Shown here piece by piece: positions 20 to 19,086 of a stretch of DNA of 45,541 nucleotides (within the stretch, counting starts at the first letter, position 1; the number at the start of each line of letters is the position of its first letter). The notes beneath the pieces were generated by a model, which had not been told where the DNA came from, made no database searches, and worked only from the letters and a program-made list of their open reading frames with translations. Location: the NCBI GenBank assembly GCA_017853435.1, contig JAFMJN010000002.1:1-45541 (forward strand), written 5' to 3'. The position numbers and the translations under genes were made by a program. The stretch is from Planctomycetota bacterium. Its GTDB lineage: Bacteria; Planctomycetota; GCA-002687715; CAIWVZ01.

Positions 20-841
20 ATGAACGATCTCGTTTCCGTCATTACCCGCACGAAGGACCGTCACGCGTTTCTCGCCGATGCGGTGGGGAGCGTCGCGAAT
101 TCGACGTGGCGTCCCGTCGAGCACATCATCGTGAACGACGGTGGGGCCGACGTATCGGCCGTGGTGGCTCCCTATCGGGACCGCCTCGACATCAAGGTGA
201 TCGACACGCCCGGAGTCGGTCGTTGCAAGGCTGGGAACCTCGGACTCGCCGCGGCACGCGGTACCTACGTTCAATGGCTCGACGACGACGATCTTCTGTA
301 TCCCGACCACATCCGCTCGCTCGTGATGGAAGCGCGCAGAACCGGGCACAAGATCGTGTACTCCGACGCCGACGTGATCCACCAGACGCGGCTTCCGTCC
401 GGCGCCTATCGAGAGGTCTCGAGGACGCCCGCGCCGGTGTTCGAAGGAACGAAGATCGCGCTTTGGCGTCGCGGGGATCTGCATCTCGTCATGGTGCTTC
501 ACCACCGGGAATGCACCGACCGTCTCGGCGGTTTCGACGAGACGCTTCCCGTACTCGAAGACATGGAGATGTTCGGGCGTTTCGCTCAGGACTATCAGTT
601 CCATAGGCTCCCCGGAATCACCGCGGGGTTCCGCGTGCGGGACGACGCGACGAACGCCGTCACGGCGATGCGCACGGAATTCGCGGAGACGCGTGCCGTG
701 CTCTATCGCCGTTACGCGCACATCGTGATGCCGGAACTTCTGACGATGGTCGAATTCGGAGCGGTGGAACTCGCGGCGCTCAAGGCGCGTGTCGAGGCCC
801 TCGAAGCCGTCGTCCGCGAGTATCAGGACAAGCATCGATGA
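20..841 (+). CDS. Glycosyltransferase family 2 (GT-A fold)
   Basis: 273-aa ORF. GT2 N-terminal signature 'VSVITRTKDRHAFLADAVGSV...HIIVNDGG' and acidic DxD-type motif 'WLDDDDLLYPDH'. Short heptad-like C-terminal tail 'LAALKARVEALEAVV'. Stop overlaps the next start (ATGA, 838-841). Only 19 nt lie upstream, so the operon may start outside the window. Confidence 0.85.
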   Translation: MNDLVSVITRTKDRHAFLADAVGSVANSTWRPVEHIIVNDGGADVSAVVAPYRDRLDIKVIDTPGVGRCKAGNLGLAAARGTYVQWLDDDDLLYPDHIRSLVMEARRTGHKIVYSDADVIHQTRLPSGAYREVSRTPAPVFEGTKIALWRRGDLHLVMVLHHRECTDRLGGFDETLPVLEDMEMFGRFAQDYQFHRLPGITAGFRVRDDATNAVTAMRTEFAETRAVLYRRYAHIVMPELLTMVEFGAVELAALKARVEALEAVVREYQDKHR

Positions 842-1584
842 GTTTTCTGCGTCGCTTCGAACCCATCTACGGAGCCGATCGGTTCGTGCGCGGACCGTTG
901 ATGGTCGTGGCGCCGCATCCCGACGACGAGACCATCGGTGTCGGGGGATTGATCGCCGCGCACCGAGACGCGAATGTCCCGGTGACCGTGATCGTGCTCA
1001 CGGACGGGGCTCTCGGCATCCCGGGGACGCGGGCGGCGGAGGACTACGTGATGCTGCGCGAGCGCGAGACGCGCGCGGCCGCCGACGCTCTCGGCGGATT
1101 CGAGATGCGGTTCCTGCGATTTCCGGACGGGGGCTTGGCCGGGGCGCAGGGGGTGGACGCGGCGATCGCCGAGGCCGTTTCCGCATGTGCGCCGGCGACG
1201 ATTGCGTTCCCGTCGCCTTTCGAAGTGCATCCCGATCACGGCGCGGCGGCCTGGGCGACCTTGCGCGCCGCGCGCCTTTCGGGTTACGCGGGGCGGCTGC
1301 TCGCCTACGAGATCGGGGCCATGATGCCCGCGAACGTCCTTCTCGACATCACGCCGTGGAAAGAGCGAAAGGCACGGGCCGTCGCGGCCTACGCCTCGCA
1401 GCTCGTCCACATGGACATCGTCGGAAAGGTCGAAGGTCTGAATCGTGCGCGCACCGTGAATATTTCGGACCCCGCGGTCCGCGCCGCCGAGGCTTTCGCC
1501 GATATTCCACCCGACGGCATCGACGGTTATTGCGACGCCGTGGAACGCCTTTCACGCGACCTCGATCGCTGGATGCCGCTCTAG
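838..1584 (+). CDS. PIG-L/LmbE family N-acetylglucosaminyl deacetylase
   Basis: 248-aa ORF with the family motifs 'VVAPHPDDETIGVGG' and 'EVHPDHGAAA'. Start is translationally coupled to the upstream GT2. Confidence 0.85.
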   Translation: MSFLRRFEPIYGADRFVRGPLMVVAPHPDDETIGVGGLIAAHRDANVPVTVIVLTDGALGIPGTRAAEDYVMLRERETRAAADALGGFEMRFLRFPDGGLAGAQGVDAAIAEAVSACAPATIAFPSPFEVHPDHGAAAWATLRAARLSGYAGRLLAYEIGAMMPANVLLDITPWKERKARAVAAYASQLVHMDIVGKVEGLNRARTVNISDPAVRAAEAFADIPPDGIDGYCDAVERLSRDLDRWMPL

Positions 1585-1621
1585 GCGTCTTCGCTTCGGT
1601 TCGCGTGGTAGAGTTCCGCCG

Positions 1622-2671
1622 ATGGCGTCGGAACGTCCGGCGCCGCAACAGGTTGAGGAAGATTCCGGCATGTCCGTGACCGCACCGAGTTCAGCTCCCG
1701 GGTCATCCGTGGACGCGCCCCTTCCGCGGGGATCCTCCGGCATGGGCGAGGTCCGCGATCGTCGACTCGGCGTGACCGCGGTGATGACTTCCTTCAACAA
1801 GAAGGAGTTCGTTCGTCGCAACCTCGACGCGATCTTCGCGCAGACCGTGAAGTTCGACGCCGTCGTGGTCGTGGACAACGCGTCGACCGACGGGACCATC
1901 GACATGATCGCCGCGGACTATCCCGACGTGACGCTCGTGGTGATGCCGCACTCCGGTTACGGCGCGTGTGAGACCTTCAATCTCGGTTTCTCCACCGCGC
2001 GCACCGAACTCGTCGCGATTCTCGACGACGACGTGGAACTGCCTCCCGACTGGGTGGATCGGATGACGGCGCGCCTCGCGGCGGAGCCCGTGACGACGGC
2101 CATGGTGTCGTCGCACGTGTGGGAGCCGGGTACCCCCGATTGGTACATGACCCATCCGGAAGTTCTTCGAGAGCGTTACATGGCGACGTTCCGTGGATGC
2201 GCCACGCTCGCCCGCCGCGACGTGCTCGAAAAATGCGGCTGGTACGATCCGGACTTCTTCATCTACGGCAACGAACGCGATCTTTCGGCGCGCGTGCTGA
2301 ACCTCGGATGCAGGATTCTGCAGTTTCCGTCGGTCGTCGTGAAGCACGGCACGCCGTTCGGGATGAAACACGGCAAGCGCAGCCTCTACTACCACGTGCG
2401 TAATCTGTGGTGGTACCTCTTCAAGCACGTTCCGTGGGGGCAGGTGTTCGCCTTCCTCTTCGGTTTCCTGTGGCGTTCGGTGTTCGGTCGCAAGAAGGCG
2501 GCCGTGACGGACGCCGTGGGCACGATCGGCTTCTTTTCGACGGTGCGCGAGACCCCGGGTGGATGGTGGATCGTCGTGAAGGCCACCTTCGACGCCTTCA
2601 TGGGGCTCCCGAAGTGTCTCCGCAAGCGCGCCCCGTGTCGCGCCCCCGATTTCAGTCTCCCGTTGGGGTAA
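1622..2671 (+). CDS. Glycosyltransferase family 2, membrane-associated
   Basis: 349-aa ORF. 'VTAVMTSFNKKEFVRRNLDAIFAQT..VVVVDNASTDGT' plus DxD 'ILDDDVELP'. Hydrophobic C-terminal segments ('WWYLFKHVPWGQVFAFLFGFLW'). The first ~40 codons are low complexity, so the true start may be ATG 1670 or ATG 1742. Confidence 0.8.
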   Translation: MASERPAPQQVEEDSGMSVTAPSSAPGSSVDAPLPRGSSGMGEVRDRRLGVTAVMTSFNKKEFVRRNLDAIFAQTVKFDAVVVVDNASTDGTIDMIAADYPDVTLVVMPHSGYGACETFNLGFSTARTELVAILDDDVELPPDWVDRMTARLAAEPVTTAMVSSHVWEPGTPDWYMTHPEVLRERYMATFRGCATLARRDVLEKCGWYDPDFFIYGNERDLSARVLNLGCRILQFPSVVVKHGTPFGMKHGKRSLYYHVRNLWWYLFKHVPWGQVFAFLFGFLWRSVFGRKKAAVTDAVGTIGFFSTVRETPGGWWIVVKATFDAFMGLPKCLRKRAPCRAPDFSLPLG

Positions 2672-2673
2672 CC

Positions 2674-3744
2674 ATGACCGACGGGCCGTCCATGCACGGT
2701 GCGCGCGACGTCACGGTCGTGGTGACCACCCACAACGCGCGGGCGACGCTTCCCGCGACCGCGGCCTGCATTCGGAATCTTCGCGGAGTCGCCAAGGTCG
2801 TCGTCGTCGACAGCGGGTCCGCGGACGGGACACCTGAACTCGCGGCTTCGCTGTTTCCGGGCGCGCGGATCGAAGCGCTCGCGTCGAACGTCGGCCCGTG
2901 CGTCACTCGCAACATCGGACTCGCCGCGGCCGAAACCGCGCGCGTGCTTTTCGTCGACGACGACATGGGGTTCGAACCCGACATCGTCGAACGACTTTCG
3001 GCCGAACTCGACGCGCATCCCGACTGCGTCGCCGCCGGGCCGACGATCGTCTTCGACGACCGACCCGATGCGATCCAGTATGCGGGTGGCAGGATGCATT
3101 TCGGCGGACTTCCGCATCTCTACAGCCTCGGGGAGAAACCCGATCCGGCCGCGAAATCGCGTCGCGTCGACGTCTTGACCGCCGGGTGCCTTCTCGTCTC
3201 GCGCACGGCGGCCCTCGATGTCGGCGGATTCGACGAGCGCTTCTTCTACCTCGCCGAAGACGTCGATTTCGCGCTTCGTCTTCGCCACCGAGGCCATCAA
3301 CTTCTTCTCGTCGCGGGAGTGGTCGTTCGCAACGTCGGTGGTTCCGCCGCTCTGTCCTTGAAGGACGCCGAATATCCCGCGCGCCGTGTCGAACTGCACA
3401 GCCGCAATCGTTGGATGCTCATCGGTCGCGACTTCGATCGTTGGACCATCTTCGCGCTACTTCCCGCACTTCTCCTCTACGAGGCGGCGTGGGCGGCGTT
3501 CGCGACGATCACCGGGCATCTCGTGCCGTATCTTCGCGGCAAGGCGCGCGCGGTCGGTGCCCTGCGTGAAAAATCGGTTCTCCGCAGGCGCCGAAAAGTC
3601 GTCTCGGATCGGAAACTCATCGGGGCTCCGAAGATGACTTTTACGCGGACGGCGTTGGCGCAGGGTGGTGCGGACGCCGGTGCCGTCGCGCTCGACGGGT
3701 CGCTGCGTCTCATGTGGACGTGCCTCCGAGGACTCGTGCAGTGA
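2674..3744 (+). CDS. Glycosyltransferase family 2
   Basis: The track ORF 2407..3744 is trimmed to ATG 2674, 2 nt after the upstream stop. 'VTVVVTTHNARATL...VVVVDSGSADGT' and DxD 'LFVDDDMGFEPD'. C-terminal TM-like 'WTIFALLPALLLYEAAWAAFATI'. Confidence 0.8.
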   Translation: MTDGPSMHGARDVTVVVTTHNARATLPATAACIRNLRGVAKVVVVDSGSADGTPELAASLFPGARIEALASNVGPCVTRNIGLAAAETARVLFVDDDMGFEPDIVERLSAELDAHPDCVAAGPTIVFDDRPDAIQYAGGRMHFGGLPHLYSLGEKPDPAAKSRRVDVLTAGCLLVSRTAALDVGGFDERFFYLAEDVDFALRLRHRGHQLLLVAGVVVRNVGGSAALSLKDAEYPARRVELHSRNRWMLIGRDFDRWTIFALLPALLLYEAAWAAFATITGHLVPYLRGKARAVGALREKSVLRRRRKVVSDRKLIGAPKMTFTRTALAQGGADAGAVALDGSLRLMWTCLRGLVQ

Positions 3745-4658
3745 CGCTCCACGACGTTCACGTCGTCGTGCTGAACTGGAACGGCTACGGAGAGACGGAA
3801 GCGTGCGTCGCGGGGGTGATGGACGTCGCTCCCGACGTACGAATCCACATCGTCGACAACGGTTCGGAAGGCGACGAGGCGGGGCGACTCGCGCGTCGAT
3901 TCCCGGACGCGCGGATCGAATCCGTCGGTTTCAACGCGGGATTCGCCGGGGGCGTGAACCGCGGTATCGACGCGGCCCTCGCCGAGGGCGCGCGATTCGT
4001 GTTCCTTTTGAACAACGACGCGCGGATCGATGCGGGAACGCTTCCCGCGCTCCTCGACGCCGCCCGTCGCAGGCCGGATGTCGGCGTGTTCGGTCCGAGA
4101 ATTTGGCGCGATCGCGGGGCGGGAGTCTTGTGGTGTTGCGGCGTCGCCTTCGGGTTCGGTCCGAATCTCGGACGTCTGCGGGGTTTCGATCGTCGCGGCG
4201 ACGGTCTGTTCCTCGAGGAAGATGCCCCGGATTCGTTGACGGGCTGCGGCCTTCTCGTGCGGCGTGAGGTCTTCGATCGGATCGGCACCCTCGACGAAGC
4301 CTATTTCGTCTATCTCGAAGATGCGGACTTTTGTCTGCGCGCGCGCGAGGCCGGTTTCGGACTGCTCTACGTTCCGGGGGCGTCGATGGAACACCCGGGT
4401 GGTTGGTCGACAGGTGGGGGATACTCGCCGGGACGCAAGTACCTCACCGCGCACGGAGCCGTCCGCTTTTTGAAGCGTCACGGCACGTGGTCTCTGTGGG
4501 CGTCGTGGGTCGTCTTCGACGTGGTGCTTTGGCCCCTGTTGTTTCTTTCCGCGGGCGTCAGGGGGCGCGGGCGGGCGGCGTGGGCCAAGGCCCGCGGGAC
4601 GCTCGACGGACTTCTCGGTCGCCCTCCGAAGCCCCCCGCGTTAAAACCGCGGGCATGA
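3741..4658 (+). CDS. Glycosyltransferase family 2 (rhamnosyltransferase-like subgroup)
   Basis: The track ORF 3714..4658 probably starts at GTG 3741 (GTGA overlap with the upstream stop). 'VHVVVLNWNGYGET...IVDNGSEGDE', 'NAGFAGGVNRGI' and 'LLNNDARID'. Hydrophobic C-terminus 'WASWVVFDVVLWPLLFLSAG'. Confidence 0.8.
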   Translation: MTLHDVHVVVLNWNGYGETEACVAGVMDVAPDVRIHIVDNGSEGDEAGRLARRFPDARIESVGFNAGFAGGVNRGIDAALAEGARFVFLLNNDARIDAGTLPALLDAARRRPDVGVFGPRIWRDRGAGVLWCCGVAFGFGPNLGRLRGFDRRGDGLFLEEDAPDSLTGCGLLVRREVFDRIGTLDEAYFVYLEDADFCLRAREAGFGLLYVPGASMEHPGGWSTGGGYSPGRKYLTAHGAVRFLKRHGTWSLWASWVVFDVVLWPLLFLSAGVRGRGRAAWAKARGTLDGLLGRPPKPPALKPRA

Positions 4659-5998
4659 GGATCCTTCAGGTCGCCCACCAGTTGCCGCCCCGTTTCACGG
4701 CGGGCACCGAGGTGTACACCCTGCGACTGGCGAAGGCGCTCACCCGGCTTGGACACGACGTCCACCTGGTTTCCGGCGACGATTCCGGTGCGACACGTCC
4801 CGGAGCCCTTCGCGAGGGGACGATCGACGGCCTCCCACACACCTTCGTCGGGGTGGACCGCATCGCTTCGACCGCCGAGGAAACGCTTTTTCCGCCGGCG
4901 ACGCGGGGTGCGTTGAAGCCGCTCGTCGCCTCCTTCTCTCCCGACGTGATCCACGTGCAGCATCTGCGCCATCTCGGTCTCCACGTGTTCGACGGGGCTC
5001 CGCCCGTCCGTCGCGTCATGACGTTGCACGACCATTGGCTCGCGTGCGCGCGCGACGGGCAGCTTCTCGATGCCGCGGGGCAACCGTGTCCCGGGGCGAC
5101 CCCCGAACGGTGCCGTTCCTGTCTCGAGGGCTTTCGCTTCGGACTTGGACGCGGGGAGGCCGCCGTGGCGCGCATGCTGTCGCGCCTCGGAGTCCGTCCC
5201 GGATCCCCGGCGGCGCGCGGACTACGGTCGGGGGCGCTCGCGTTGCGTCGACTTCGGTCCACCGAATCCGGCAGGCCCTACGATCTCGAGGCGCGTCGCC
5301 GTGCGGTGTCGGACCTCGCCGCCGTGACCGATCGCTTCATCGCACCCTCGCGGCACGTCGCCGACGCCCTGACGGCGTTCGGGTTGCCCCCGGGCAAGAT
5401 GGTGGTGATTCCGCACGGGGTCGATGCCGACGTCGCCTTCCGTCCCGTTCCCGCGCCCGAGGGCGCTCCGCTGCGGATCGGTTACATGGGCACCGTCGCG
5501 CCGCCGAAGGGGCTCCATGTCCTCGTGGAGGCGTTTGCCCGTCTCGGTCGCGGGGTCGCGACGTTGCGCGTCCACGGACGCACGGATCTGCGCCCCGAGT
5601 ACGTCGCGTCGGTGGTCGGGGGAGGACTTCCCGCCGGAGTCACCATCGAAGGGGCCTTTCGCCCCGAGGAAGCCCCGCGTCGCCTCGCCGAAATCGACGT
5701 CCTCGTCGTCCCGTCGATTTGGCCGGAGAACCATCCGCTGACCATCGCCGAGGCCCTCGCCCATAGGGTCCCGGTCGTGGCGTCCGCGCTGGGCGGGATT
5801 CCCGAAATCGTGAAAGACGGCGTCAACGGTCGATTGGTGCCTCCGGGAGATCCCGAGGCCTTGGCCGAGGTTCTCCGGCGGTTGGCCCGCGACCGCGTCG
5901 AATTGGCGCGCCTCCGAGCGGGAATCACCCCCCCGGAATCGTTCTTGAGCCATGCCGCATCGGTAGTTGTGGCGTACGATACTCGCGAGGTTTCCTGA
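4655..5998 (+). CDS. Glycosyltransferase family 4 (GT-B, retaining type), Cys4-insert paralog 1
   Basis: The track ORF 4331..5998 is trimmed to ATG 4655 (ATGA overlap). 'MRILQVAHQLPPRFTAGTEVYTLRLAKAL', EX7E motif 'ENHPLTIAE', 'GGIPEIVKDGVNGRLVPPGD'. Carries 'TLHDHWLAC-x13-C-x7-CRSC'. Confidence 0.85.
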   Translation: MRILQVAHQLPPRFTAGTEVYTLRLAKALTRLGHDVHLVSGDDSGATRPGALREGTIDGLPHTFVGVDRIASTAEETLFPPATRGALKPLVASFSPDVIHVQHLRHLGLHVFDGAPPVRRVMTLHDHWLACARDGQLLDAAGQPCPGATPERCRSCLEGFRFGLGRGEAAVARMLSRLGVRPGSPAARGLRSGALALRRLRSTESGRPYDLEARRRAVSDLAAVTDRFIAPSRHVADALTAFGLPPGKMVVIPHGVDADVAFRPVPAPEGAPLRIGYMGTVAPPKGLHVLVEAFARLGRGVATLRVHGRTDLRPEYVASVVGGGLPAGVTIEGAFRPEEAPRRLAEIDVLVVPSIWPENHPLTIAEALAHRVPVVASALGGIPEIVKDGVNGRLVPPGDPEALAEVLRRLARDRVELARLRAGITPPESFLSHAASVVVAYDTREVS

Positions 5999-5999
5999 C

Positions 6000-7379: not shown

Positions 7380-7404
7380 CGGTGCGGGGAGCGAGATGCG
7401 GTAA

Positions 7405-11286: not shown

Positions 11287-13544
11287 AGGTTCTCATGCTG
11301 ACGATGGGATTGCCGCCCGCCTCTCGCGGTGGGACGGAAGTTCACGTCATGGGGCTCGCTCGGGCTCTGCGTCGACGCGGAGATCGGGTGGTGTTGGCCT
11401 GTCGCGAATCGGCGGAAGGACGGACGCCTTTCTCGGTCCGTCGGGAAGCGCTCGACGGTTTCGATGTGTATCGGATGGCCTACGACTTCCATGACGCGAC
11501 GTCGTATCGCGCCATTCATGAACATCCTTCGATCGACGCCGCTCTCGAGGGGGTGGTGGATGCCGTCGCGCCCGACGTCGTCCATATCCATCACTTCAGT
11601 TGCCTGTCGACGTCGTTCCTCGATCGACTCCATGCGCGCCGTATCCCGACGGTCGTGACGCTGCACGATCACTGGCTCCCGTGTCCGCGGGGACAGCGAA
11701 TCACCCCCGAACTCGAAATTTGTGAAACTCTCGATCGAAACCGCTGCGCCACTTGTCTCGGCGCCTTGTGGCCGCATTTCGACGTCGGGCCCAAGGTGCT
11801 CGAAGAGGCCGACACGCGTCTGTTGCGGCGTTTGAATCGTGTCGATCTCCTTATCGCACCTTCCGAGTTTCACGCGCGACGCATGATCGAATGGGGACTC
11901 GACCCCGCGTTGGTGCGCGTCGTCGTGCACGGACTCGAATCGGACGGCTACGAAGCCGTCAGGCGACGCCGGTCGGGCGTTCGCGTCGTCGGCTTTCTGG
12001 GCAGCGTCATTCCGTCGAAGGGGGTTCACGTCCTGATCGAGGCGTGGAAGCGCCTCGGGCGAACCGACATCGAACTCGTCGTTCACGGCGAAGCACCGAC
12101 GTTCCACGGGCGAGACGGGTACGTCGACGGTCTCCGTGCCGCGTGCGACGGTCTTCGGGTGCGGTTCGCGGGAGCCTACGAACCGGCGGATGTCCCGCGC
12201 CTTCTGCGGGGTATCGACGTCCTCGTCGTGCCTCCCGTGTGGTGGGAGTCGTTCTGCCTCACGGCGCGCGAAGCGTTTCTTGCCGGCGTTCCGGTGGTCG
12301 CCTCCGGACACGGGGCGTTGCTCGAAGCCTTCGAGGACGGGAACGGCGGACGGTTCTTTCCCCCCGGCGATGTGGAGGCGTTGGCGGCGACACTCGCGGA
12401 TCTCATCGACCACCCCGAGCGTCACGAGGCTCTCGCGGCTTCCGTTCCCGCCGTACGAAGCATCGCGGAGTGCGCCGACGAGACCTCGCGTCTTTACGCG
12501 TCCGTCGCGGCGGCGCGTCGTCATCGAGAGGCGCTCGATGGAAGCGACGCGCTTGGACTGCTCGGCCCCGACGCGACCGCGACGCCGTACTGCACGGTGT
12601 TCATTCCGACGTGGAACGGGTTGCCCGAACTATCGGGAGTCTTGGCGAAACTCGTCGTCCAGCGCACGCCGTTCCCGTTCGAGATCCTCGTGATCGATTC
12701 CGGTTCGACCGACGGAACTCTCGAACTTCTGGCCGAATATCCGTCGATTCGCGTGATCCGCATCCCGAATTCCGAGTTCAATCACGGTACGACGCGCAAT
12801 CGCGGCGTCGCCGAGGCACGCGGTGAGATCGTCGCCTTGTTGACGCAGGATGCGGAGCCCGTCGACGATCGATGGCTCGCCCGTCTCGTCGGGAACTTTT
12901 CCGATCCCCGAGTCGCGGGGGTCTATTGCTCGCAGCGACCGCGTCCCGACTGCGACCCTTTCGCGCGGGATCGGTTGAAGGACTGGACCGCGGAGTCCGG
13001 GCCACCCGTCGTGCAGGGGCCGGTGACGCCCGAAGCGTTCGAAAGCATGACGCCGTGGGAGCGGTATCTGGTGTCGCGCTTCGACGACGTCGCGAGTTGC
13101 GTGAGGAAATCGGCCATGGTCGAGGTTCCTTACGCGCGTCGTCAGTTCGGAGAAGACGTCGAGTGGGGGAAACGTGCCGTCCTCGCCGGATGGAAGATCG
13201 TGAACGACCCCGGCTCCGTGGTGATTCACTCGCACACGTCTCCGGTGCTCTACGAATTCAAGCGCGTTTATCTCGACCATCAAAATCTTCACGAGCTCTT
13301 CGGTCTGCACACGTTGCCGCGCTGGACCGACGTTCCTTTGTGTGCGGTGCGTTACTTCCTTCATCTGCTCCCCGTCGTTTGGCGCGACGACCGGGACGTC
13401 GCCTTCAAACTTTGGTGGACGTTGAAATTGCCGCTGTACGCGTTCACCCAAAATCTCGCGCAATGGCTCGGCGCGAAGTCCGTCGCGTGGAAGCGCGACG
13501 GTCGGCATCGTTGGGTGGACGCCTTGCTTCGGAAATCGGTGTGA
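11283..13544 (+). CDS. Bifunctional glycosyltransferase: N-terminal GT4 fused to C-terminal GT2
   Basis: 753-aa ORF with an ATGA overlap to the upstream gene. GT4 part: 'MKVLMLTMGLPPASRGGTEVHVMGLARAL', EX7E 'ESFCLTARE'. GT2 part from nt ~12585: 'YCTVFIPTWNGLPEL...ILVIDSGSTDGT', 'FNHGTTRNRG', 'LLTQDAEP'. Confidence 0.85.
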   Translation: MKVLMLTMGLPPASRGGTEVHVMGLARALRRRGDRVVLACRESAEGRTPFSVRREALDGFDVYRMAYDFHDATSYRAIHEHPSIDAALEGVVDAVAPDVVHIHHFSCLSTSFLDRLHARRIPTVVTLHDHWLPCPRGQRITPELEICETLDRNRCATCLGALWPHFDVGPKVLEEADTRLLRRLNRVDLLIAPSEFHARRMIEWGLDPALVRVVVHGLESDGYEAVRRRRSGVRVVGFLGSVIPSKGVHVLIEAWKRLGRTDIELVVHGEAPTFHGRDGYVDGLRAACDGLRVRFAGAYEPADVPRLLRGIDVLVVPPVWWESFCLTAREAFLAGVPVVASGHGALLEAFEDGNGGRFFPPGDVEALAATLADLIDHPERHEALAASVPAVRSIAECADETSRLYASVAAARRHREALDGSDALGLLGPDATATPYCTVFIPTWNGLPELSGVLAKLVVQRTPFPFEILVIDSGSTDGTLELLAEYPSIRVIRIPNSEFNHGTTRNRGVAEARGEIVALLTQDAEPVDDRWLARLVGNFSDPRVAGVYCSQRPRPDCDPFARDRLKDWTAESGPPVVQGPVTPEAFESMTPWERYLVSRFDDVASCVRKSAMVEVPYARRQFGEDVEWGKRAVLAGWKIVNDPGSVVIHSHTSPVLYEFKRVYLDHQNLHELFGLHTLPRWTDVPLCAVRYFLHLLPVVWRDDRDVAFKLWWTLKLPLYAFTQNLAQWLGAKSVAWKRDGRHRWVDALLRKSV

Positions 13545-14821
13545 GGCCGCGCGCCCTTTTTGTCGGACACGTCCCGCCCGACGCCCGTGGCGGTGGGGTC
13601 GGCAATCACATGGGCGAAGCGGCCCGCGCGGTTTCGGATCTTTTCGAGATCTCATGGTTCACGCGCGGGTCCGATGGTTCGGGTGATGATCTCGCGGTTT
13701 CGGAGGAGACCTTGTTCGAGGGTGGTCGCGCTTTCGTGTTTGCCCATCGCGGCGTGCGGGGGACGTCGTTTCGAGAACGGACGCGATTCGAGCCCGCGGA
13801 GGCGGCGTTCGATCGCGTGCTCCGCTCCGTCCGTCCCGATGTCGTTCATATTCATCATTGGTCGTGGCTGTCGTCCGGCATGGCCGCGGCGGCCCGCGCC
13901 TTCGGGGCCCGCGTCGTCCTTACGCTGCACGACCATGTCGCGACGTGCCCGCGGGGGAGGCGCTATCGACCGGACGACGTCGTTTGCGAGACGGTCGTGC
14001 CCGAGACGTGTGCGGCGTGCGTCGTTCCGCGGTGGATCGAAGCGGTGCGGAATCCCGATTCGAAGGCGCGCGCGATCGTCCGCGCCTTGTTCGGTCGAAG
14101 CGAAGATCTTCGCCTTCTCGCGGAGCGCGAACGTCGGATCTTGGACATGTTGGCGTCGGCCGATGCGATCGTTTTTCCGTCGGAGGACGCGCGTCGACGT
14201 TGTGCCGAGCGGTTCGGATCCCTTTCCGATCGGATGCGGGTGATTCCCCCCGTTTGGAAGCGCCCCCTTTCGGCTCCGCCTCGGCGTCCCGACGGAGCGG
14301 TGTTTCGCGTCGGACTTCTCGGCGATCCCGCCTTCGCGAAGGGGATCGTTCCCGCGGCACGCGCGATCGCTGGATGCGAGCGTCCGACGTCGCTGGACGT
14401 TTGGGGAGAGCCGAGCGCGCACGTCGCGGGGGTGCTCTCCGCCGCCGCGCCGGGCCACGTTCGGTGGCGGGGTCGCTACACCCCCGATACGCTCGGCGAC
14501 GTCATGGCGACGCTCGACGCGGTCGTGGTTCCGTCGCTTTGGCCCGAGACCTTCGGCATCGTCGCGCGTGAAGCGGCCGCCTACGGGCGTCCGGTGATCG
14601 TGAGCGCGATCGGGGGACTCGCCGACGCCGTGGTGCGTGGCGTGGCCGTCGGCGTCCCCCCCGGCGATGTCCATGCGCTGCGTGCGGCGATCGACGCGCT
14701 TCCTTCGGGTTCCGATCCGATCGCCGTCCCGTCCGGGGTCGATGCGGAATGGTGCGAAGGTCGCGACGGGCTTCGGGCTCTCTACGCGGACCTCGTCGTC
14801 GGTGGTAAGACGGGGGCATGA
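13541..14821 (+). CDS. Glycosyltransferase family 4, Cys4-insert paralog 5
   Basis: The track ORF 12872..14821 is trimmed to GTG 13541 (GTGA overlap). 'RALFVGHVPPDARGGGVGNHMGEAARAV', 'VVHIHHWSW', 'TLHDHVATC-x12-C-x7-CAAC', EX7E 'ETFGIVARE'. Confidence 0.8.
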   Translation: MRPRALFVGHVPPDARGGGVGNHMGEAARAVSDLFEISWFTRGSDGSGDDLAVSEETLFEGGRAFVFAHRGVRGTSFRERTRFEPAEAAFDRVLRSVRPDVVHIHHWSWLSSGMAAAARAFGARVVLTLHDHVATCPRGRRYRPDDVVCETVVPETCAACVVPRWIEAVRNPDSKARAIVRALFGRSEDLRLLAERERRILDMLASADAIVFPSEDARRRCAERFGSLSDRMRVIPPVWKRPLSAPPRRPDGAVFRVGLLGDPAFAKGIVPAARAIAGCERPTSLDVWGEPSAHVAGVLSAAAPGHVRWRGRYTPDTLGDVMATLDAVVVPSLWPETFGIVAREAAAYGRPVIVSAIGGLADAVVRGVAVGVPPGDVHALRAAIDALPSGSDPIAVPSGVDAEWCEGRDGLRALYADLVVGGKTGA

Positions 14822-16917
14822 TCTCCCGCTTCCTGTGCGTGCTTGCGTTGCTCGTCGCCGCGACGTCCGGGCAGGGAAGGGTCATCCTGATCGGGGTCGA
14901 CGGTCTCGATCCCGAATTCACGACGCGCTGGACCGACGACGGCACGCTTCCCGAACTCGCCGCGCTCCGGCGCAATGGAGGACTCGCGCCGCTTCTTCCC
15001 ACCAATCCCGCTCAGTCGCCGGTTTCGTGGGCGTCGCTCATCACGGGCCGCAATCCCGGTGAAACGGGCATCTTCGACTTTCTCGCGCGTCGCGCCAAGA
15101 ACGGGGAGATCACGGCGGAACTCGCCTTGGTCGATCGCGTACGACTTCCGCTGAGGGCGTGGGTCGTCGGCGTGCTGATGGTGGTCATTCTCGCGTTGTC
15201 CGGGTTCGTGGCGTACCGCAGGCTTCGAGCGGGAGCCGTCCTTCGAAGGGCGCCCTTCGTCGGCACGTTGCTCGGGGCCGCGTGTTTCGTCGGGGCGCTC
15301 GGAGCGTGGTTGCCCGCGTGGGTCGAGGTGCCCCGGAACGCGCGCGGCGGCGAGACACTGTTCGAGCGTCTCGACCGTGCGGGCATCGGAACGGTCAACG
15401 TGTTCGCTCCGATGTCGTTCCCCGCGCCCGATCTCAAGAACGGCTGCGTGCTCTGCGGACTCGGCGTCCCGGACGTGATGGGAACTCCGGGCACGGCGGT
15501 GGTCTACCGCGAAGAGCCGATCGCGGGGGGCGTGAGGATCACTCCGACGGGATGTCGGGAAGTGCAGATGACGGAGGTCGGCGGCGTTCTCGCCGGACCG
15601 AAGGTCGAAGGACCGCGTCGCCCCGACGGATCGCGGCCGCAAGTCCCTCTGAAAGTGATTCCCGCGCGTGGACGCAACGCGCTGATCTTCGAACTCGACT
15701 CCGGACTGTCGATCGAAGTGGCGAAGGGCGGCTGGACTCCGTGGATGGATGTCCCGATTCCTCTCGGGCCGCTCGGAGTGTTGTCGTCGTTGGCGCGCTT
15801 CCGTGTCCTTGAGGCGGGCGCCCGCACGATCATCTATCAGGAACCGTCGTGCTTCGATCCTCGGCGACCGTCTCCGGTCGCGCCCATCGTTTCGCCGAAG
15901 TCGTTCGGATCCGAGTTGGCGACCGACGGCCGTCCGTTCGGCACTCTCGGTTGGGCGTGTGCGACGAATCCGCTCCAGGACGAGATCATCGACGAGGAGA
16001 CCTTCCTCACGCAGACGCTCGATATCGATCGGGAGCGCGAGGAACTCGTGATGCGAGCCTTGGGTCGCAGCGGTTGGAAGATGTTTTTCTGCGTGTTGTC
16101 GACGCCGGATCGCGTCCAGCACCTTTTCATGCGCGATCACGACCCCGCGCATCCTCGTCACGATCCGACGGCGATCGCTCGACGCGGAGATCCGATCAAG
16201 GAGTCGTATCGCCGTATCGACGCCCTCGTCGGTCGCATCCGTCGCGAAGTCGCTTCGCGCGACGACTTGATCGTCGTTTTCTCCGATCACGGCATCGCCC
16301 CGTTCCGCCATCAAGTCAATCTCAATCGTTGGCTCGCCGAAGAGGGTTATCTCGTCGGATCCGAAGCGGGTTCCGAACGCACCATCGAAACGTCGATCGG
16401 CGGCTCCGCGTTGTTCCCCGGAATCGACTGGACGCGCACGCGTGCGTATTCGATGGGGCTCGGGAAGATCTGGCTCAATCTGCAAGGTCGCGAGCCTCGC
16501 GGCTCGGTCGATCCCGCGAAGCGTCGCGCCTTGCTCGAAGAAATTCGCACGAAGCTCCTCGCACTCGAGCATGACGGAAAGCGGATCGTGCGGTCGGTCG
16601 GCGTCCGCGAAGACCTCTATTCCGGAGATCGCGTCGAGGAGTCCGCGGATCTCGTCGTCGGATTCGAGCGCGGCTATCGGATTTCGTGGCAGGCGACGCT
16701 CGGCTCGCTCGACGAGCCCGTGATCATTCCCAATCGTCGACTTTGGTCGGGTGACCATTGCTCGGTGGACCCCGCTTTGGTGCCGGGAGTCTTCGTCGCA
16801 TCGCGTCCTTTCGCCGAAAACGAGGTCGGCGTCCTCGATCTCTTCCCGACGGTCGAAGCATGGTTCCGACTTCCCCGTACGATCGGGCTCTCGGGGCGGG
16901 TGCTCGCGTGGAAGTGA
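14818..16917 (+). CDS. Alkaline-phosphatase-superfamily enzyme (type I phosphodiesterase/nucleotide pyrophosphatase-like), membrane tethered
   Basis: 699-aa ORF with an ATGA overlap. Signal-like N-terminus 'MISRFLCVLALLVAATSGQG'. Metal-ligand and nucleophile-type motifs: 'LIGVDGLDPE', 'NPAQSPVSWASLITG', 'VFSDHGIAPF', 'WSGDHCSVD'. Two hydrophobic helices are inserted at nt ~15150-15325. Confidence 0.75.
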   Translation: MISRFLCVLALLVAATSGQGRVILIGVDGLDPEFTTRWTDDGTLPELAALRRNGGLAPLLPTNPAQSPVSWASLITGRNPGETGIFDFLARRAKNGEITAELALVDRVRLPLRAWVVGVLMVVILALSGFVAYRRLRAGAVLRRAPFVGTLLGAACFVGALGAWLPAWVEVPRNARGGETLFERLDRAGIGTVNVFAPMSFPAPDLKNGCVLCGLGVPDVMGTPGTAVVYREEPIAGGVRITPTGCREVQMTEVGGVLAGPKVEGPRRPDGSRPQVPLKVIPARGRNALIFELDSGLSIEVAKGGWTPWMDVPIPLGPLGVLSSLARFRVLEAGARTIIYQEPSCFDPRRPSPVAPIVSPKSFGSELATDGRPFGTLGWACATNPLQDEIIDEETFLTQTLDIDREREELVMRALGRSGWKMFFCVLSTPDRVQHLFMRDHDPAHPRHDPTAIARRGDPIKESYRRIDALVGRIRREVASRDDLIVVFSDHGIAPFRHQVNLNRWLAEEGYLVGSEAGSERTIETSIGGSALFPGIDWTRTRAYSMGLGKIWLNLQGREPRGSVDPAKRRALLEEIRTKLLALEHDGKRIVRSVGVREDLYSGDRVEESADLVVGFERGYRISWQATLGSLDEPVIIPNRRLWSGDHCSVDPALVPGVFVASRPFAENEVGVLDLFPTVEAWFRLPRTIGLSGRVLAWK

Positions 16918-17450
16918 CGTCGCGCGCCGAACCCTTGCGCCGGGTCGTCCACGTCGCGGTGGGCCTTCCCGCGTTCTTCCTCGATCGAAGCACGGTCACG
17001 TTCTTCATCGGCGCCTGCGTCGCGGGGGCCGTGTTCAACGCCGTGGTGCTTCGCCTCGTGCCGATCTTCCGCGAGGTCCGTGACGTGCCGCGCGGGTCGG
17101 CCGGAACCGTGCTCTATCCCGCGACACTCGCGGTGCTGCTCGTTCTCTTTCGCGACCGTCCGGAACTCGTGAAGGTCGGATGGATCATGTTGGCCTTCGG
17201 TGACGGCTTGGTTCCGTTGTTCGCGAGGCTCGGGGGTCCACGTTGGCCGACGGTTGAAGGTAAGCGTGTGATCCCTTCCGTTTTCGCCGCCGCGTGTGCC
17301 GCCCTCGTCGCATGGCCCGCGACGGATTGGAAACTTGCCTTCGCGGGTGCCGCCGCGGCCGTCTTCGCCGACGCGATCCCGCGGGTGGACGACAACATCG
17401 CGTGGCCCGTTCTCGGCGTCCTCGGTGCGTGGGGGGGCTACGCCGCGTGA
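16914..17450 (+). CDS. Small polytopic membrane protein, polyprenol (dolichol/phytol) kinase / CTP-transferase-1-like
   Basis: The track ORF 16758..17450 is trimmed to GTG 16914 (GTGA overlap). About 6 hydrophobic helices. 'MLAFGDGLVPLFARLGG...VEGK' and 'ADAIPRVDDNIAWPVLG' resemble the GDxxAxxxG and DN..P motifs of the COG0170 dolichol/phytol kinase family. The match is degenerate, so the function call is tentative. Confidence 0.5.
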   Translation: MTSRAEPLRRVVHVAVGLPAFFLDRSTVTFFIGACVAGAVFNAVVLRLVPIFREVRDVPRGSAGTVLYPATLAVLLVLFRDRPELVKVGWIMLAFGDGLVPLFARLGGPRWPTVEGKRVIPSVFAAACAALVAWPATDWKLAFAGAAAAVFADAIPRVDDNIAWPVLGVLGAWGGYAA

Positions 17451-18151
17451 GCGACCCTTTTTTTCACGAACCCCTTCGTGCGGCACTCGTCGGGGCGGCG
17501 CTCGTCGTCCCGGTGGCCGTCGCGCGTGCCGCGACGGTCGGTGGGTGTGCGGCCGGGGCCGTCGCCGCCGCGTGGCTCGCGTGGGCGGGGGGGCGTCCCG
17601 CGCTCGTCGCTTTCGCCGCCTTGGTGGTGGTCGGCACGTGGACGTCCCGACTCGGTCGCGAGCGCAAGCGTCGTGAGGGCGTCGCGCAGTCCGACGGGGG
17701 GCGTCGTGCGGCCCGCCATGTCCTCGCGAACGCCGGACCCGCGCTCCTCGCCGTCGCGCTCGGCGAAGGAGGCTACGTCGAACGGGACGTCGCGATCGCC
17801 GCGGCGTGCGGTGCCTTCGCGGGCAACCTCGCGGACACGGCTTCGGGCGAATTGGGAATGCTGTTCCCGCGGCCGCCGCGACTTCTGCTTTTCGGCCCGA
17901 TCGTGCGTCGGGGAACGAACGGCGGCATGACGTGGCCCGGATTGTGGTGTGGGGTTGTTTCGGGAAGCCTCGTCGCGGCGTTGAACGCCGACGTGGTTTC
18001 CGTGATTCCGATATGCGTCGCCGCCCTCGTCGGCACGTTGACCGACAGCCTTCTCGGAGCGTGTATCGAAGGCAAGTTCGGAATCGGCAACGAAACGGTG
18101 AATTTCACGTCCGGGGCCGTCGCCGCTTTCTGCGCCGGAGCCTGCGTATGA
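17447..18151 (+). CDS. DUF92 / TMEM19 / VTE6-like integral membrane protein (putative polyprenyl-phosphate kinase family)
   Basis: The track ORF 17294..18151 is trimmed to GTG 17447 (GTGA overlap). Polytopic protein. 'AFAGNLADTASGELGMLF' matches the DUF92 'ADT.aSE.G' signature. Also 'GGMTWPG' and a C-terminal 'NFTSGAVAA'. Confidence 0.6.
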   Translation: MSDPFFHEPLRAALVGAALVVPVAVARAATVGGCAAGAVAAAWLAWAGGRPALVAFAALVVVGTWTSRLGRERKRREGVAQSDGGRRAARHVLANAGPALLAVALGEGGYVERDVAIAAACGAFAGNLADTASGELGMLFPRPPRLLLFGPIVRRGTNGGMTWPGLWCGVVSGSLVAALNADVVSVIPICVAALVGTLTDSLLGACIEGKFGIGNETVNFTSGAVAAFCAGACV

Positions 18152-19086
18152 AAGCGCGATTCGCCTGTTGGTGGGAGGCGACGCGACCGTTCACGCTGGC
18201 GCCTCCCGCGATCGGGATGGTGTCGGGTGGTCTGAGCGCGCTCGGTGCGAATCCGTCGCTCTCCGCCGACGGACGATTTTGGACCTCCGTCGGCATCGGA
18301 GCATTGATGGCCGCCGCGCTCAACGCGGCGAGCAACGTCCTGAATCAGATCCACGATCTCGCGCTCGATCGCGTCAACAAACCGGAACGGCCGATTCCTT
18401 CGGGACGACTGTCCGTCGGCGAGGCCTACGGACTGGCCGTCGCGTGTTACGCGATCGCTCTCGTCCTCGCGTTCATTCCGCGGCCTTCGGGATTCCCGGA
18501 GACCGGCGTCATCGCGTTGGTCACGACGGTGCTCACGTGGGTCTATTCCGCTCCGCCCGTGCGCGCACGCAATTCGTGGTGGCTCGGACCTCTCGTCATC
18601 GCCGTTCCACGCGGCTTGCTTCTCAAGGTCGCCGGATGGAGTTGTATCGCGCCCGTCGGGTCGGATCGCGAGCCTTGGATTTTGGGCGCGGTGTTTTTCG
18701 TCTACGTCATCGGTGCCGCGCCCGTGAAGGATTTCGCCGATCTCGAAGGGGATCGACGCGGGGGGGCGTCGTCGCTTCCCATTCGGTTCGGACCGAAGCG
18801 TGCCGCCGACATCGTCGCGGCGTTCCTCCTCCTCCCCGGTTTGCTTCTCGCGGTGTTGCCCCGCATCGTCGTCGACGGACGTCCGCTGCTCGGCGTCTCG
18901 GCGACGGGATCGGCGATCGCGGGCCTGGTCATCTTCCTCCACGGAGCGCGGGTCGGAGCGATGATGCGTCGCGATCCCGACGCGCTCGTGGCCGGAGGGG
19001 GCACCGATGCATGGCGCCACATGTATCTCTTGATGATGGAACTGCAGATCGCCGCCGCGGGTCTGTACTTCCTGCATCACCTCTGA
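18148..19086 (+). CDS. UbiA-superfamily prenyltransferase (DGGGP-synthase/chlorophyll-synthase-like motif type)
   Basis: The track ORF 17806..19086 is trimmed to ATG 18148 (ATGA overlap). First Asp-rich motif 'NVLNQIHDLALDRVNKPERPIPSGR' (NxxxDxxxD...RPIPSG). Second motif 'VKDFADLEGDRRGG' (DxxDxxxD). Polytopic membrane protein. Confidence 0.85.
   Translation: MKARFACWWEATRPFTLAPPAIGMVSGGLSALGANPSLSADGRFWTSVGIGALMAAALNAASNVLNQIHDLALDRVNKPERPIPSGRLSVGEAYGLAVACYAIALVLAFIPRPSGFPETGVIALVTTVLTWVYSAPPVRARNSWWLGPLVIAVPRGLLLKVAGWSCIAPVGSDREPWILGAVFFVYVIGAAPVKDFADLEGDRRGGASSLPIRFGPKRAADIVAAFLLLPGLLLAVLPRIVVDGRPLLGVSATGSAIAGLVIFLHGARVGAMMRRDPDALVAGGGTDAWRHMYLLMMELQIAAAGLYFLHHL

Follow-up and report, generated by a model that had tools for sequence, protein, structure and literature searches.

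A conserved operon of uncultured Planctomycetota combining glycosyltransferases, a radical SAM enzyme and an isoprenoid-lipid module

Gene content and conservation of the operon

The operon described here lies at the start of a window of 45,541 nt (the whole stretch of DNA analysed, positions 1-45,541 of contig JAFMJN010000002.1 from a Planctomycetota bacterium; G+C content about 66 %) and encodes glycosyltransferases, a deacetylase, a radical S-adenosylmethionine (SAM) enzyme, a phosphodiesterase-family enzyme and an isoprenoid-lipid module. Fourteen open reading frames (ORFs) of the plus strand, g1 to g14 (20-19086), contained no internal stops on translation; their spacings are -4, +37, +2, -4, -4, +1 and +25 nt followed by six of -4 nt, with ATGA or GTGA overlaps at nine junctions. 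The start of g3 is ambiguous, later starts having been chosen by the JGI and ENA gene callers, so that the g2-g3 gap may be read as 37-157 nt. Translation and Pfam searches reproduced all the genes, spacings and domain content given in a preliminary description of this DNA, including five family 2 (GT2) glycosyltransferase modules (g1, g3, g4, g5 and the C-terminal half of g9), five of family 4 (GT4; g6, both ends of g8, the N-terminal half of g9, and g10) and the domains PIG-L (g2), Radical_SAM and SPASM (g7), PF01663 Phosphodiest (g11), DUF92 (g13) and UbiA (g14). Scans for consensus promoters and terminators showed no enrichment within the g1-g14 block, a pattern that would fit a single transcript, and Rfam and tRNA scans gave no match inside the operon. 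The features are as follows.

1..23, plus strand: 3' end of the upstream GT4 gene uC (..GPESP, stop), with an ATGA overlap with g1; placed from contigs L001 and L002
20..841, plus strand: g1, GT2, 273 aa; PF00535 65.7 bits; DDDD motif at residues 92-95
838..1584, plus strand: g2, PIG-L/LmbE-type de-N-acetylase, 248 aa; PF02585 92.1 bits; second of two in the full operon
1622..2671, plus strand: g3, GT2, 349 aa, start uncertain, hydrophobic C-terminal tail; PF00535 76.6 bits
2674..3744, plus strand: g4, GT2, 356 aa; PF00535 66.3 bits; hydrophobic segments 210-228 and 258-276
3741..4658, plus strand: g5, GT2 (Pfam), 305 aa; best NCBIfam match rhamnosyltransferase TIGR01556, 63.7 bits against a cut-off of 200.6
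4655..5998, plus strand: g6, GT4 (Pfam), 447 aa; intact EX7E; four-Cys insert
6000..7379, plus strand: g7, 459 aa, radical SAM enzyme carrying an auxiliary-cluster domain of the SPASM/twitch type; serves as the operon's signature gene
7405..11286, plus strand: g8, GT4-coiled coil-GT4 protein, 1293 aa, two Pfam GT4 modules; candidate polymerase/terminator with a length ruler
11283..13544, plus strand: g9, GT4-GT2 fusion (Pfam), 753 aa; orthologues of 732-754 aa in all relatives
13541..14821, plus strand: g10, GT4 (Pfam), 426 aa, accessory
14818..16917, plus strand: g11, alkaline-phosphatase-superfamily enzyme (PF01663), 699 aa, signal peptide and inserted two-helix membrane hairpin
16914..17450, plus strand: g12, 178 aa, a small polytopic protein of the membrane; may be a polyprenol kinase of the dolichol/phytol/farnesol type
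17447..18151, plus strand: g13, DUF92/TMEM19/VTE6-family membrane protein, 234 aa; candidate polyprenyl-phosphate kinase
18148..19086, plus strand: g14, UbiA-superfamily prenyltransferase of the ChlG/DGGGPS/HPT group, 312 aa
19077..20393, minus strand: conv, 438 aa, convergent, with a 10-nt overlap with the end of g14; no Pfam match; possible membrane partner

The 14 genes previously described as one unit are all present, yet the window start cuts the operon. In the near-identical metagenome contigs L001 and L002 a GT4-type ORF (..ARGPESP, stop) ends 4 nt into g1, and relatives show three more co-directional genes upstream, namely uA (404-416 aa, no Pfam match), a second PIG-L gene, uB, and the GT4 gene uC (434-438 aa). 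The start of the operon, about 4 kb upstream, was read in L014 (CAIWVZ010000010.1, a 98 %-identical contig) and in L005 (a 2.26-Mb contig of a Planctomycetota metagenome-assembled genome, 66 % identical); judged by these sequences, the full unit has 16-17 genes, of which the window holds the last 14. In three relatives uC and g1 are fused to one ORF (L013, 2575-4752; L015, 2244-4457; L017, 2206-4431), and this natural fusion suggests that the two enzymes act at consecutive steps. In L014 a frameshift, or else a fault of assembly, divides g1 into 3907-4266 and 4270-4839 (82 and 190 aa); in the window the gene is unbroken.

Wherever the DNA reaches (L005, L006, L007, L011, L013, L014, L015, L017, L019-L022 and L023-L026), the conserved order is uA, PIG-L, GT4, GT2, PIG-L, three GT2 genes, GT4, radical SAM, GT4-coiled coil-GT4, GT4/GT2, the alkaline-phosphatase-superfamily gene, g12, DUF92 and UbiA. 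At least 11 different metagenome-assembled genomes of Planctomycetota thus share this order, with protein identities of 34-86 %, and on this ground we regard g1 to g14 as real genes. The G+C content of the locus ranges from 58 to 72 %; it is 58 % in L011 (CAMARR010000001.1), whose radical SAM protein is 86 % identical to that of the window. Homologues of this enzyme of at least 49 % identity came exclusively from Planctomycetota records or metagenome contigs, and a scan of one genome per GTDB species with two peptide patterns found at least 12 loci (a lower bound), all in Planctomycetota metagenome-assembled genomes. A homologue of about 37 % identity (P0049) stands alone in an unrelated context with no such operon; the system is marked only by the group of at least 49 % identity. 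As in the window, the operon is followed in L023 and L026 by genes for a Zn_peptidase_2 protein (window 20230-21105), an extracytoplasmic function (ECF) sigma factor and HEAT proteins. Because of this synteny and the conserved order, the locus looks chromosomal and vertically inherited rather than a mobile island.

The phosphodiesterase-family gene g11 and the g12/DUF92/UbiA triad are constant members of the operon in the relatives. By contrast, g10 is confined to the close lineage of the window (L011 and L014) and absent from L005-L007, L013, L015, L017, L019, L021 and L022; it is a lineage-specific addition outside the operon core. In L005 its place before the alkaline-phosphatase-superfamily gene is taken by a secreted DUF1080 (3-keto-disaccharide-hydrolase-like) protein (19435-20790, plus strand), and the radical SAM gene is followed by an additional gene (11396-12937, plus strand) for a 513-aa polytopic protein, x513, with a soluble C-terminal part and no Pfam or NCBIfam match. 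Two genomes carry a short-chain dehydrogenase/reductase (SDR) gene directly after UbiA (L023, 12182-13159; L026, 12223-13254; both plus strand), for whose product the highest score, still below threshold, was that against HpnA ('hopanoid-associated sugar epimerase'; 188-192 bits, cut-off 368); next came OleD and the sterol enzyme SdmB, lipid-acting reductases of the 3-beta-HSD type. L026 also has a 139-aa tRNA-Thr_ED (editing-domain-like) protein inserted between g9 and the alkaline-phosphatase-superfamily gene (7445-7864, plus strand).

Profile searches of the 14 proteins against Pfam and NCBIfam returned superfamily domains for all but g12, with no protein at an NCBIfam cut-off, and searches of open-access full text (DUF92 with UbiA; Planctomycetes glycolipid or radical SAM; COG1836/DUF92/TIGR00297) found no description of the locus. 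The earlier impression that it matches no characterized locus is supported on both counts.

Predicted activities of the encoded proteins

The glycosyltransferases are predicted to be active from the motifs they have kept. EX7E is intact in every GT4 module of the window, and a DxD-type pattern occurs in four of the five GT2 modules (DxD in g1, g3 and g4; NND in g5), the same motif scan giving no match in the C-terminal half of g9. All six GT4 modules, that is, the five of the window and uC, carry an N-terminal-domain insert of the form H(D/E)..C..C..CxxC, which we presume could bind zinc. With 27-35 % identity to one another, the six modules are paralogues, g6 being 35 % identical to the C-terminal module of g8, and the closest solved GT4 to g6, MshA (59.8 bits, E 2.7e-15), is more distant than these paralogues. 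Since the six modules are closer to each other than to any solved GT4, the operon appears to have grown by internal duplication. A match of g10 to PF20706, 'GT4 in conflict systems' (37.9 bits against a cut-off of 26), was not taken as a sign of a defence role, as stronger general GT4 matches overlie it. Hydrophobic C-terminal helices were scored in g4 and g5, and a hydrophobic tail was read by eye in g3, which suggests that these three enzymes may work at the membrane. All the Leloir enzymes of the operon are without signal peptides and several have such membrane-association tails, from which we infer that the glycan is assembled at the cytoplasmic face. The deacetylases scored 78-80 bits against the BshB1 and BshB2 models (cut-offs 182-195; g2 about 80 bits) and 22.7 against MshB (cut-off 224), while the GT4 enzymes scored 44 bits against MshA (462) and 45 against BshA (274); the second PIG-L gene, uB, adjoins the GT4 gene uC upstream in the relatives.

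The g8 protein has GT4 modules at about residues 15-430 and 838-1290, separated by a coiled-coil-like region (about 435-830, some 390 residues) that is nearly free of Pro and Gly and rich in A, E, L and R. SMC models match residues 465-777, and PF24161 (CCDC39) matches in orthologues. The spacer is kept in 15 orthologues, in which the four-Cys inserts of the two modules are 713-942 residues apart, corresponding to a spacer of about 290-515 residues. Extended coiled coils between terminator and polymerase modules mark ruler-controlled O-polysaccharide assembly dependent on an ATP-binding cassette (ABC) transporter (WbdD, WbbB; PMC11231755), and g8, as far as its sequence tells, has the build of these WbbB/WbdD-type chain-length rulers. 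By analogy, it may polymerize and terminate at a distance set by the coiled coil. Because g8 has this terminator-coiled coil-polymerase build, the view in the preliminary description that the locus has no chain-length regulator is probably wrong.

The radical SAM enzyme g7 exceeded the Pfam cut-offs for PF13186 (50.1 bits against 21.5) and PF04055 (31.7 against 29.5) and reached no NCBIfam model. Its CxxxCxxC motif (C54/C58/C61) and C373, C391, C392, C432 and C435 are invariant in 23 orthologues, and it has the two features of a SPASM/twitch enzyme, a cluster motif and a C-terminal Cys-rich auxiliary domain. The sole sequence matches among solved structures were BtrN (E 2.5e-5, over the auxiliary-cluster domain) and BlsE (3e-3, over the core), a 2-deoxy-scyllo-inosamine dehydrogenase and a decarboxylase, respectively, both acting on carbohydrates; this is a weak indication that the substrate of g7 may be a sugar rather than a peptide. 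Bacteriohopanetetrol cyclitol ether is proposed to arise on an isoprenoid lipid by transfer of GlcNAc, its deacetylation and a ring contraction by a radical SAM enzyme (HpnI/HpnK/HpnJ; PMC13459092), and calditol synthase is a case of radical SAM action on a lipid-bound hexose (PMC13459092). Two other roles for g7 were considered. Formation of formylglycine on the g11 nucleophile was rejected, g11 having QSPVSW and not (C/S)xPxR, and coupling of lipid tails in the manner of tetraether synthase is unsupported, no such match being found among solved structures at E <= 0.01. The upstream protein uA may be a degenerate relative of this superfamily. In five of nine orthologues Radical_SAM was matched below threshold, with a G(L/V)PGE(T) motif, the matched part being the distal half of the barrel, and in a profile search of the PDB seven of the ten matches, the top seven, were radical SAM enzymes (NocN, HemN, ELP3, AprD4, RimO and others; E 0.03-1.4). 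No cysteine is conserved in uA, and we assign to it, with moderate confidence, a radical-SAM-like fold without a cluster.

The g11 protein scored 114 bits against PF01663 (cut-off 23). Residues D28, S67 (within NPAQSPxxW), D431/H435, D490/H491 and H647 do not vary among ten orthologues; from motif comparison we presume that S67 is the nucleophile and that the others bind the metals, as expected of the NPP/alkaline-phosphatase enzymes; a single-sequence search against solved structures gave no match. Every orthologue has a hydrophobic, signal-peptide-like start ending in ..AQG-R and a two-helix hairpin with an Arg-rich loop. From the positive-inside rule applied to this loop, together with the N-terminus, the catalytic domain is predicted in these ten sequences to face the periplasm; if so, some product or lipid of the system must cross the inner membrane.

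The last three genes make up the lipid module, which the preliminary description had called kinase-like, DUF92 and UbiA. The latter two assignments were recovered by Pfam, g13 scoring 117 bits against PF01940 (cut-off 27.5; TIGR00297, 88 against 206, was not reached) and g14 scoring 114.7 bits against PF01040 (cut-off 34.2). The kinase-like label of g12 has no Pfam match behind it and draws on names of relatives and a fusion: of the 29 relatives found with a profile of g12, seven are named dolichol, farnesol or phytol kinase by JGI, and in P0086 (297 aa) a g12-like domain is fused to the N-terminal part of DUF92, which supports a functional link between the two. GD(G), K117 and D160-N161 of g12 are invariant or nearly so across the family, and its AlphaFold model (predicted local distance difference test score, pLDDT, 94) has eight helices; the distant relatives P0085 and P0091 lie on short contigs with uninformative context. 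Although g14 belongs to the UbiA superfamily, it remains below the family cut-offs for ChlG (110.6 bits against 313), DGGGPS (84.7 against 296), HPT (79.7 against 226) and EboC (NF035940; 55.9 against 250). Its matches among solved structures are ChlG (2.9e-17) and DGGGPS (1.3e-16), and its NxxxDxxxD motif, read from the sequence, is NQIHDLALD. Polyprenol kinases of the VTE5/FOLK type are similar to dolichol kinase; the second phosphate comes from VTE6 (COG1836, i.e. DUF92), and UbiA-type enzymes draw on the prenyl diphosphates made in this series (PMC9782597). The g12-g14 triad would thus mirror a known three-step polyprenol logic. The affinity of g14 for ChlG and DGGGPS, which use C20 prenyl diphosphates, and the VTE5/VTE6 parallel together suggest a C20-type prenyl chain. 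The constancy of the triad in the operon across relatives makes the earlier idea of an isoprenoid-linked glycan a reasonable one.

Flanking membrane proteins and neighbouring genes

Polytopic proteins flank the operon on both sides. The convergent protein conv has a polytopic N-terminal half (4-5 hydrophobic segments) and a conserved C-terminal domain; its homologues in the same position in L023, L024/L025 and L026 (506-561 aa, 5-9 hydrophobic segments) are 30-36 % identical in the latter domain, which contains WRPSIR..RELLWE..DL. Upstream of uA lies a conserved divergent gene for a polytopic membrane protein of 394-470 aa without a Pfam match, div. Profile searches with conv and div found no Pfam family and no sequence relative in the PDB. 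In two relatives the DNA beyond div carries a block (L029, 4663-8522; L027, 1135-5091; both plus strand) that encodes an ABC ATPase (best matches LolD/YbbA/DevA), an FtsX/MacB_PCD permease, a DUF3299 protein and a further GT2 enzyme, with 49-60 % identity between the two genomes, and this block is a candidate exporter. Pairing the upstream GT2 with div as a GtrB/GtrC-like couple was not supported, as this GT2 resembles soluble enzymes like g5, MftF and rhamnosyltransferases.

No WbaP/WecA-type transferase was matched by Pfam or NCBIfam in the 14 genes, the 26 kb downstream, the three upstream genes of the relatives or about 5 kb further (L027/L029). Neither Wzm (ABC-2) nor Wzt was found in any stretch read, the nearby transporter of L027/L029 being FtsX/MacB_PCD with a LolD/DevA-like ATPase, and Wzx, Wzy and Wzz had no Pfam matches, div, conv and x513 being polytopic proteins without family assignment. 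The earlier report that WbaP/WecA, Wzx/Wzy and Wzm/Wzt are not recognizable accordingly extends from the 14 genes to the 26 kb downstream and to some 4 kb upstream in relatives, whose genes do not complete an ordinary O-antigen or exopolysaccharide (EPS) locus. The broader statement that export and polymerization genes are lacking goes too far, because polytopic proteins without a family flank the operon and a MacB-type ABC transporter lies near it in two relatives.

The remainder of the window (19-45 kb) is made up of housekeeping genes on both strands, encoding a Zn peptidase, iPGM, ECF sigma and anti-sigma factors, HEAT proteins, an M61 peptidase, IleRS, PNP, a Ser/Thr kinase, YggS, a BamB-like protein, TilS, PGK, Rpe, AccD and an outer-membrane efflux protein. 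The ECF sigma factor gene (22712-23281, plus strand) is followed by a gene for a zf-HC2 anti-sigma protein with HEAT repeats (23179-24531, plus strand), next to which lies a convergent HEAT-repeat gene (24535-26340, minus strand). A single tRNA-Leu gene with the anticodon tag between the HEAT-repeat and M61 peptidase genes (26399-26480, minus strand) is the sole Rfam/ARAGORN match in the window. An OEP/TolC-like efflux gene (41707-43089, plus strand) overlaps by 4 nt a 688-aa ORF without a Pfam match (43086-45152, plus strand); the two could form part of an export system.

Proposed pathway and alternative explanations

The operon belongs to none of the systems with which it was compared, defining features of these having been looked for and not found. 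It shares cytoplasmic multi-module Leloir glycosyltransferases with the ABC-transporter O-polysaccharide systems that use rulers (Escherichia coli O9a/Klebsiella O3 WbdA-WbdD; Klebsiella O12 WbbB), and its likeness to WbbB, a terminator-coiled coil-polymerase protein, lies in the glycosyltransferase modules at both ends of the g8 coiled coil, with no Pfam match to Wzy or Wzz here. However, its enzymes are GT4 and not GT99, GT102 or GT103, Wzm/Wzt, a carbohydrate-binding module and WecA are missing from the stretches read, and it adds a radical SAM enzyme, two PIG-L enzymes, a putatively periplasmic PF01663 enzyme and a polyprenol-kinase-like/DUF92/UbiA module. The pair of a retaining GT4 and a PIG-L enzyme known from MshA/MshB, BshA/BshB, PIG-A/PIG-L and BtrM/BtrD occurs twice in the full operon, where the best NCBIfam matches of the deacetylases are BshB1, BshB2 and MshB and the nearest solved GT4 is MshA, all far below the equivalog cut-offs. 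PIG-N, PIG-O and PIG-G of glycosylphosphatidylinositol (GPI) synthesis carry a PF01663 domain, and the operon likewise includes a PF01663 enzyme. Unlike the mycothiol and bacillithiol pathways, however, it has no inositol, malate or cysteine-ligase genes, and its roughly ten additional glycosyltransferase modules imply a much larger product; unlike GPI synthesis, it has no GT-C mannosyltransferases and no transamidase.

Other comparisons bear on the lipid module. Plant and cyanobacterial salvage of phytol and geranylgeraniol (VTE5/FOLK, VTE6, VTE2/ChlG) employs in series three enzyme types to which g12 (putatively), g13 and g14, adjacent here, would correspond, yet photosynthesis is not known in the host, genes for homogentisate or chlorophyllide synthesis are not seen, the triad sits in a glycan operon, and g12 is much shorter than typical VTE5/FOLK members and unrecognized by Pfam. 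The ebo cluster (eboA-F), known from cyanobacteria, Bacteroidota and the plastids of eustigmatophytes, also unites UbiA and PF01663 in one conserved operon; its presumed product is a polar, prenylated carrier destined for the periplasm. However, there are no equivalents of EboA, EboB, EboD or EboE and no TatD, sugar-phosphate-cyclase or xylose-isomerase-like domains in our operon, and ebo has no glycosyltransferases. With HpnI/HpnK/HpnJ and the calditol synthase Cds it would share the order of glycosyl transfer, deacetylation and radical SAM action on an isoprenoid lipid, and further likenesses are the weak resemblance of uA to the barrel of B12-type/HemN-type radical SAM enzymes and the HpnA-like SDR of two genomes. 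On the other hand, g7 is a SPASM/twitch enzyme and not an orthologue, uA has lost the cluster cysteines, and no hopanoid core genes lie nearby, so that the resemblance is one of logic and not of orthology. Mycofactocin differs in that MftC and MftF scores stay below their cut-offs and that its precursor and partner genes are absent from the operon.

Our current working hypothesis, which we put forward tentatively and at slightly less than even confidence, is that the operon directs the cytoplasmic assembly of a length-controlled, glucosamine (GlcN)-containing lipoglycan whose anchor derives from salvaged polyprenol through prenyl transfer by UbiA. We further propose that it is inherited vertically within a clade of uncultured Planctomycetota. 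Such a pathway most likely matches no characterized one. What can be read directly from the DNA is the order of the genes, the families of their domains, the conservation between genomes, the intactness of catalytic motifs and the topology signals of g11; all substrates, the sequence of reactions and the kind of anchor are deduced. In this scheme g12 would phosphorylate a free C20-type polyprenol and g13, as a DUF92/VTE6-type enzyme, would add the second phosphate; the diphosphate would then donate its prenyl group, through the ChlG/DGGGPS-like g14, to a polar acceptor, giving the membrane anchor. Priming may consist of the addition of GlcNAc by GT4 enzymes and its deacetylation to GlcN by the two PIG-L enzymes; GlcNAc transfer followed by de-N-acetylation is the paradigm of MshA/MshB, PIG-A/PIG-L and BtrM/BtrD. 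One sugar might then be altered by g7, perhaps with uA, through oxidation, epimerization or ring contraction, as with BtrN, HpnJ and calditol synthase. Elongation would proceed at the cytoplasmic face, where four GT2 enzymes bearing membrane-association tails would extend the chain together with the bifunctional g9, while g8, with two active GT4 modules some 390 coiled-coil residues apart, would polymerize and terminate as a ruler in the manner of WbbB/WbdD. Export would fall to proteins so far unrecognized, for which div, conv and, in some genomes, the MacB-type ABC transporter are candidates, and g11 may cleave or transfer a phosphoester-linked group in the periplasm.

A number of points weigh against this hypothesis. 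Since no protein reaches an NCBIfam equivalog cut-off, all functions are assigned at superfamily level, and all carriers are metagenome-assembled genomes. The coiled coil of g8 was deduced from composition and model matches, and its length differs by about 25 % between genomes. A putative kinase role of g12 is drawn from source annotation, the fusion and the neighbouring genes: Pfam searches at E = 10 (nine orthologues) and E = 1 (distant relatives) gave neither CTP_transf_1 nor any other link, comparison of its model with the PDB, among whose structures no relative seems to be found, gave no fold match at E <= 0.001, and a PDB profile search returned nothing meaningful. No gene for a UbiA acceptor, a flippase or nucleotide sugars is identifiable in the operon core. 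The structure model of conv (five sequences, the homologue search having given four) had a mean pLDDT of 42.6 and is unusable, any role of the flanking membrane proteins in the system is guesswork, and the ABC transporter block was seen in two relatives only, the two with readable DNA there.

Alternative explanations were considered as well. The operon could serve an ordinary polysaccharide of the O-antigen/EPS type that is linked to undecaprenyl diphosphate (Und-PP) and follows the ABC-transporter route, with a WecA-type enzyme and an exporter encoded elsewhere and g12-g14 servicing the carrier pool; we consider this unlikely. It is true that wecA often lies outside O-antigen loci. It is also true that GT2 and GT4 Leloir enzymes only, multi-module glycosyltransferases and a coiled-coil protein are together a hallmark of ABC-transporter-dependent synthesis (PMC11231755), and that a MacB-type transporter adjoins the locus in two relatives. 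However, the Und-PP carrier cycle needs the monophosphate and leaves no place for a constant DUF92/VTE6-type kinase and UbiA; the adjacent transporter is of the FtsX/MacB type, with no Wzm/Wzt (ABC-2) in the stretches read; and such loci do not normally contain a radical SAM enzyme, a pair of PIG-L enzymes or a PF01663 enzyme in the periplasm.

The lipid genes might instead make a polyprenyl-phosphate-sugar donor, akin to mycobacterial decaprenyl-phosphoribose or -arabinose, with which flanking proteins of the GT-C type decorate the glycan in the periplasm. The adjacency of UbiA, the phosphoesterase g11 and, in two genomes, the SDR would suit this, as would the presence of three different family-less polytopic proteins with soluble C-terminal domains (div, conv and, in L005, x513) and of a prenyl-phosphate-using member in the UbiA family (PMC5133447). 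However, g14 is best matched by ChlG, DGGGPS and HPT, with no decaprenyl-phosphoribose (DPPR) synthase model among its matches, DUF92 would be left without a role, g11 is predicted to be periplasmic whereas DPPR is dephosphorylated in the cytoplasm, no DprE1-like oxidase is present, and neither PDB profile searches with div and conv nor the structure model of conv gave any sign of a GT-C fold. We therefore hold a donor pathway to be improbable. The operon could equally be viewed as a cluster for a diffusible secondary metabolite, such as a prenylated, heavily glycosylated compound resembling an aminocyclitol or aminoglycoside, and our estimate of this is just as low. A GT4 enzyme, a PIG-L deacetylase and a BtrN-like radical SAM enzyme form the core logic of 2-deoxystreptamine aminoglycoside pathways, and all three are found in the operon, with g7 as the BtrN-like member. 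The pairing of UbiA with PF01663 is shared with the ebo cluster, which has been linked to a prenylated cyclitol-type metabolite (PMC5133447, PMC6282210), although the EboC score of 55.9 bits against 250 and the absence of the other ebo genes speak against a closer tie. The operon lacks genes for a sugar-phosphate cyclase, an aminotransferase, resistance and regulation, the 10-11 glycosyltransferase modules and coiled-coil spacer point to a polymer, and the syntenic, vertical, housekeeping neighbourhood across 58-72 % G+C is unlike that of a mobile metabolite cluster.

Finally, it is very improbable that g7 is a peptide or protein maturase, whether in an operon that glycosylates a ribosomal peptide or protein, as in mycofactocin, or as the maturase of g11 in the style of the anaerobic sulfatase-maturing enzymes (anSME): most SPASM enzymes are such maturases, the best sub-threshold NCBIfam matches of g7 include TIGR04311 'putative metalloenzyme maturase', MftF is the best sub-threshold match of several GT2 enzymes and g7 and g11 always co-occur, but junctions of -4 to +37 nt leave no space for a precursor-peptide gene, Pfam matched no MftB/PqqD-type chaperone, peptidase or oligosaccharyltransferase domain, the mycofactocin models are far below their cut-offs (MftC 26.7 against 265; MftF at most 88.6 against 280) with no MftA, MftB, MftD or MftE partners, QSPVSW of g11 lacks the (C/S)xPxR needed for formylglycine, and the solved-structure matches of g7 modify sugars and are neither anSME nor peptide maturases.

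Returning to the lipoglycan hypothesis, a joint reading of its parts that we consider doubtful is that a salvaged C20 alcohol (geranylgeraniol, or phytol from algal chlorophyll) passes through the two kinases and is ether-linked by UbiA to a glucosamine- or cyclitol-containing primer remodelled by the radical SAM enzyme, giving a ruler-sized lipoglycan made without an Und-PP carrier and exported by membrane proteins of new families. If true, such a prenyl-ether lipoglycan would be a functional analogue of GPI or archaeal glycolipid anchors. The novelty lies in the unusual lipid module of a glycoconjugate locus; the chemistry of each step has precedent and each protein belongs to a well-known superfamily.

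The envelopes of Planctomycetota are poorly understood and their surface glycoconjugates almost uncharted. The operon unites ruler-type polymerization, GlcNAc-deacetylation/radical SAM chemistry and a polyprenol-salvage/UbiA module, which are not known together elsewhere. Conserved proteins without a family (uA, div, conv and g12) gain a clear genomic context, and g8 offers a self-contained GT4-coiled coil-GT4 enzyme for the study of ruler mechanisms. Should the operon turn out to encode a variant O-antigen pathway, the gain would be smaller, though still useful for genome annotation. If the lipid module does make the anchor, it would represent a lipid-linked glycan route that bypasses the universal polyprenyl-phosphate carrier logic and would assign a definite function, in bacteria that do not photosynthesize, to DUF92 and to short proteins resembling polyprenol kinases.

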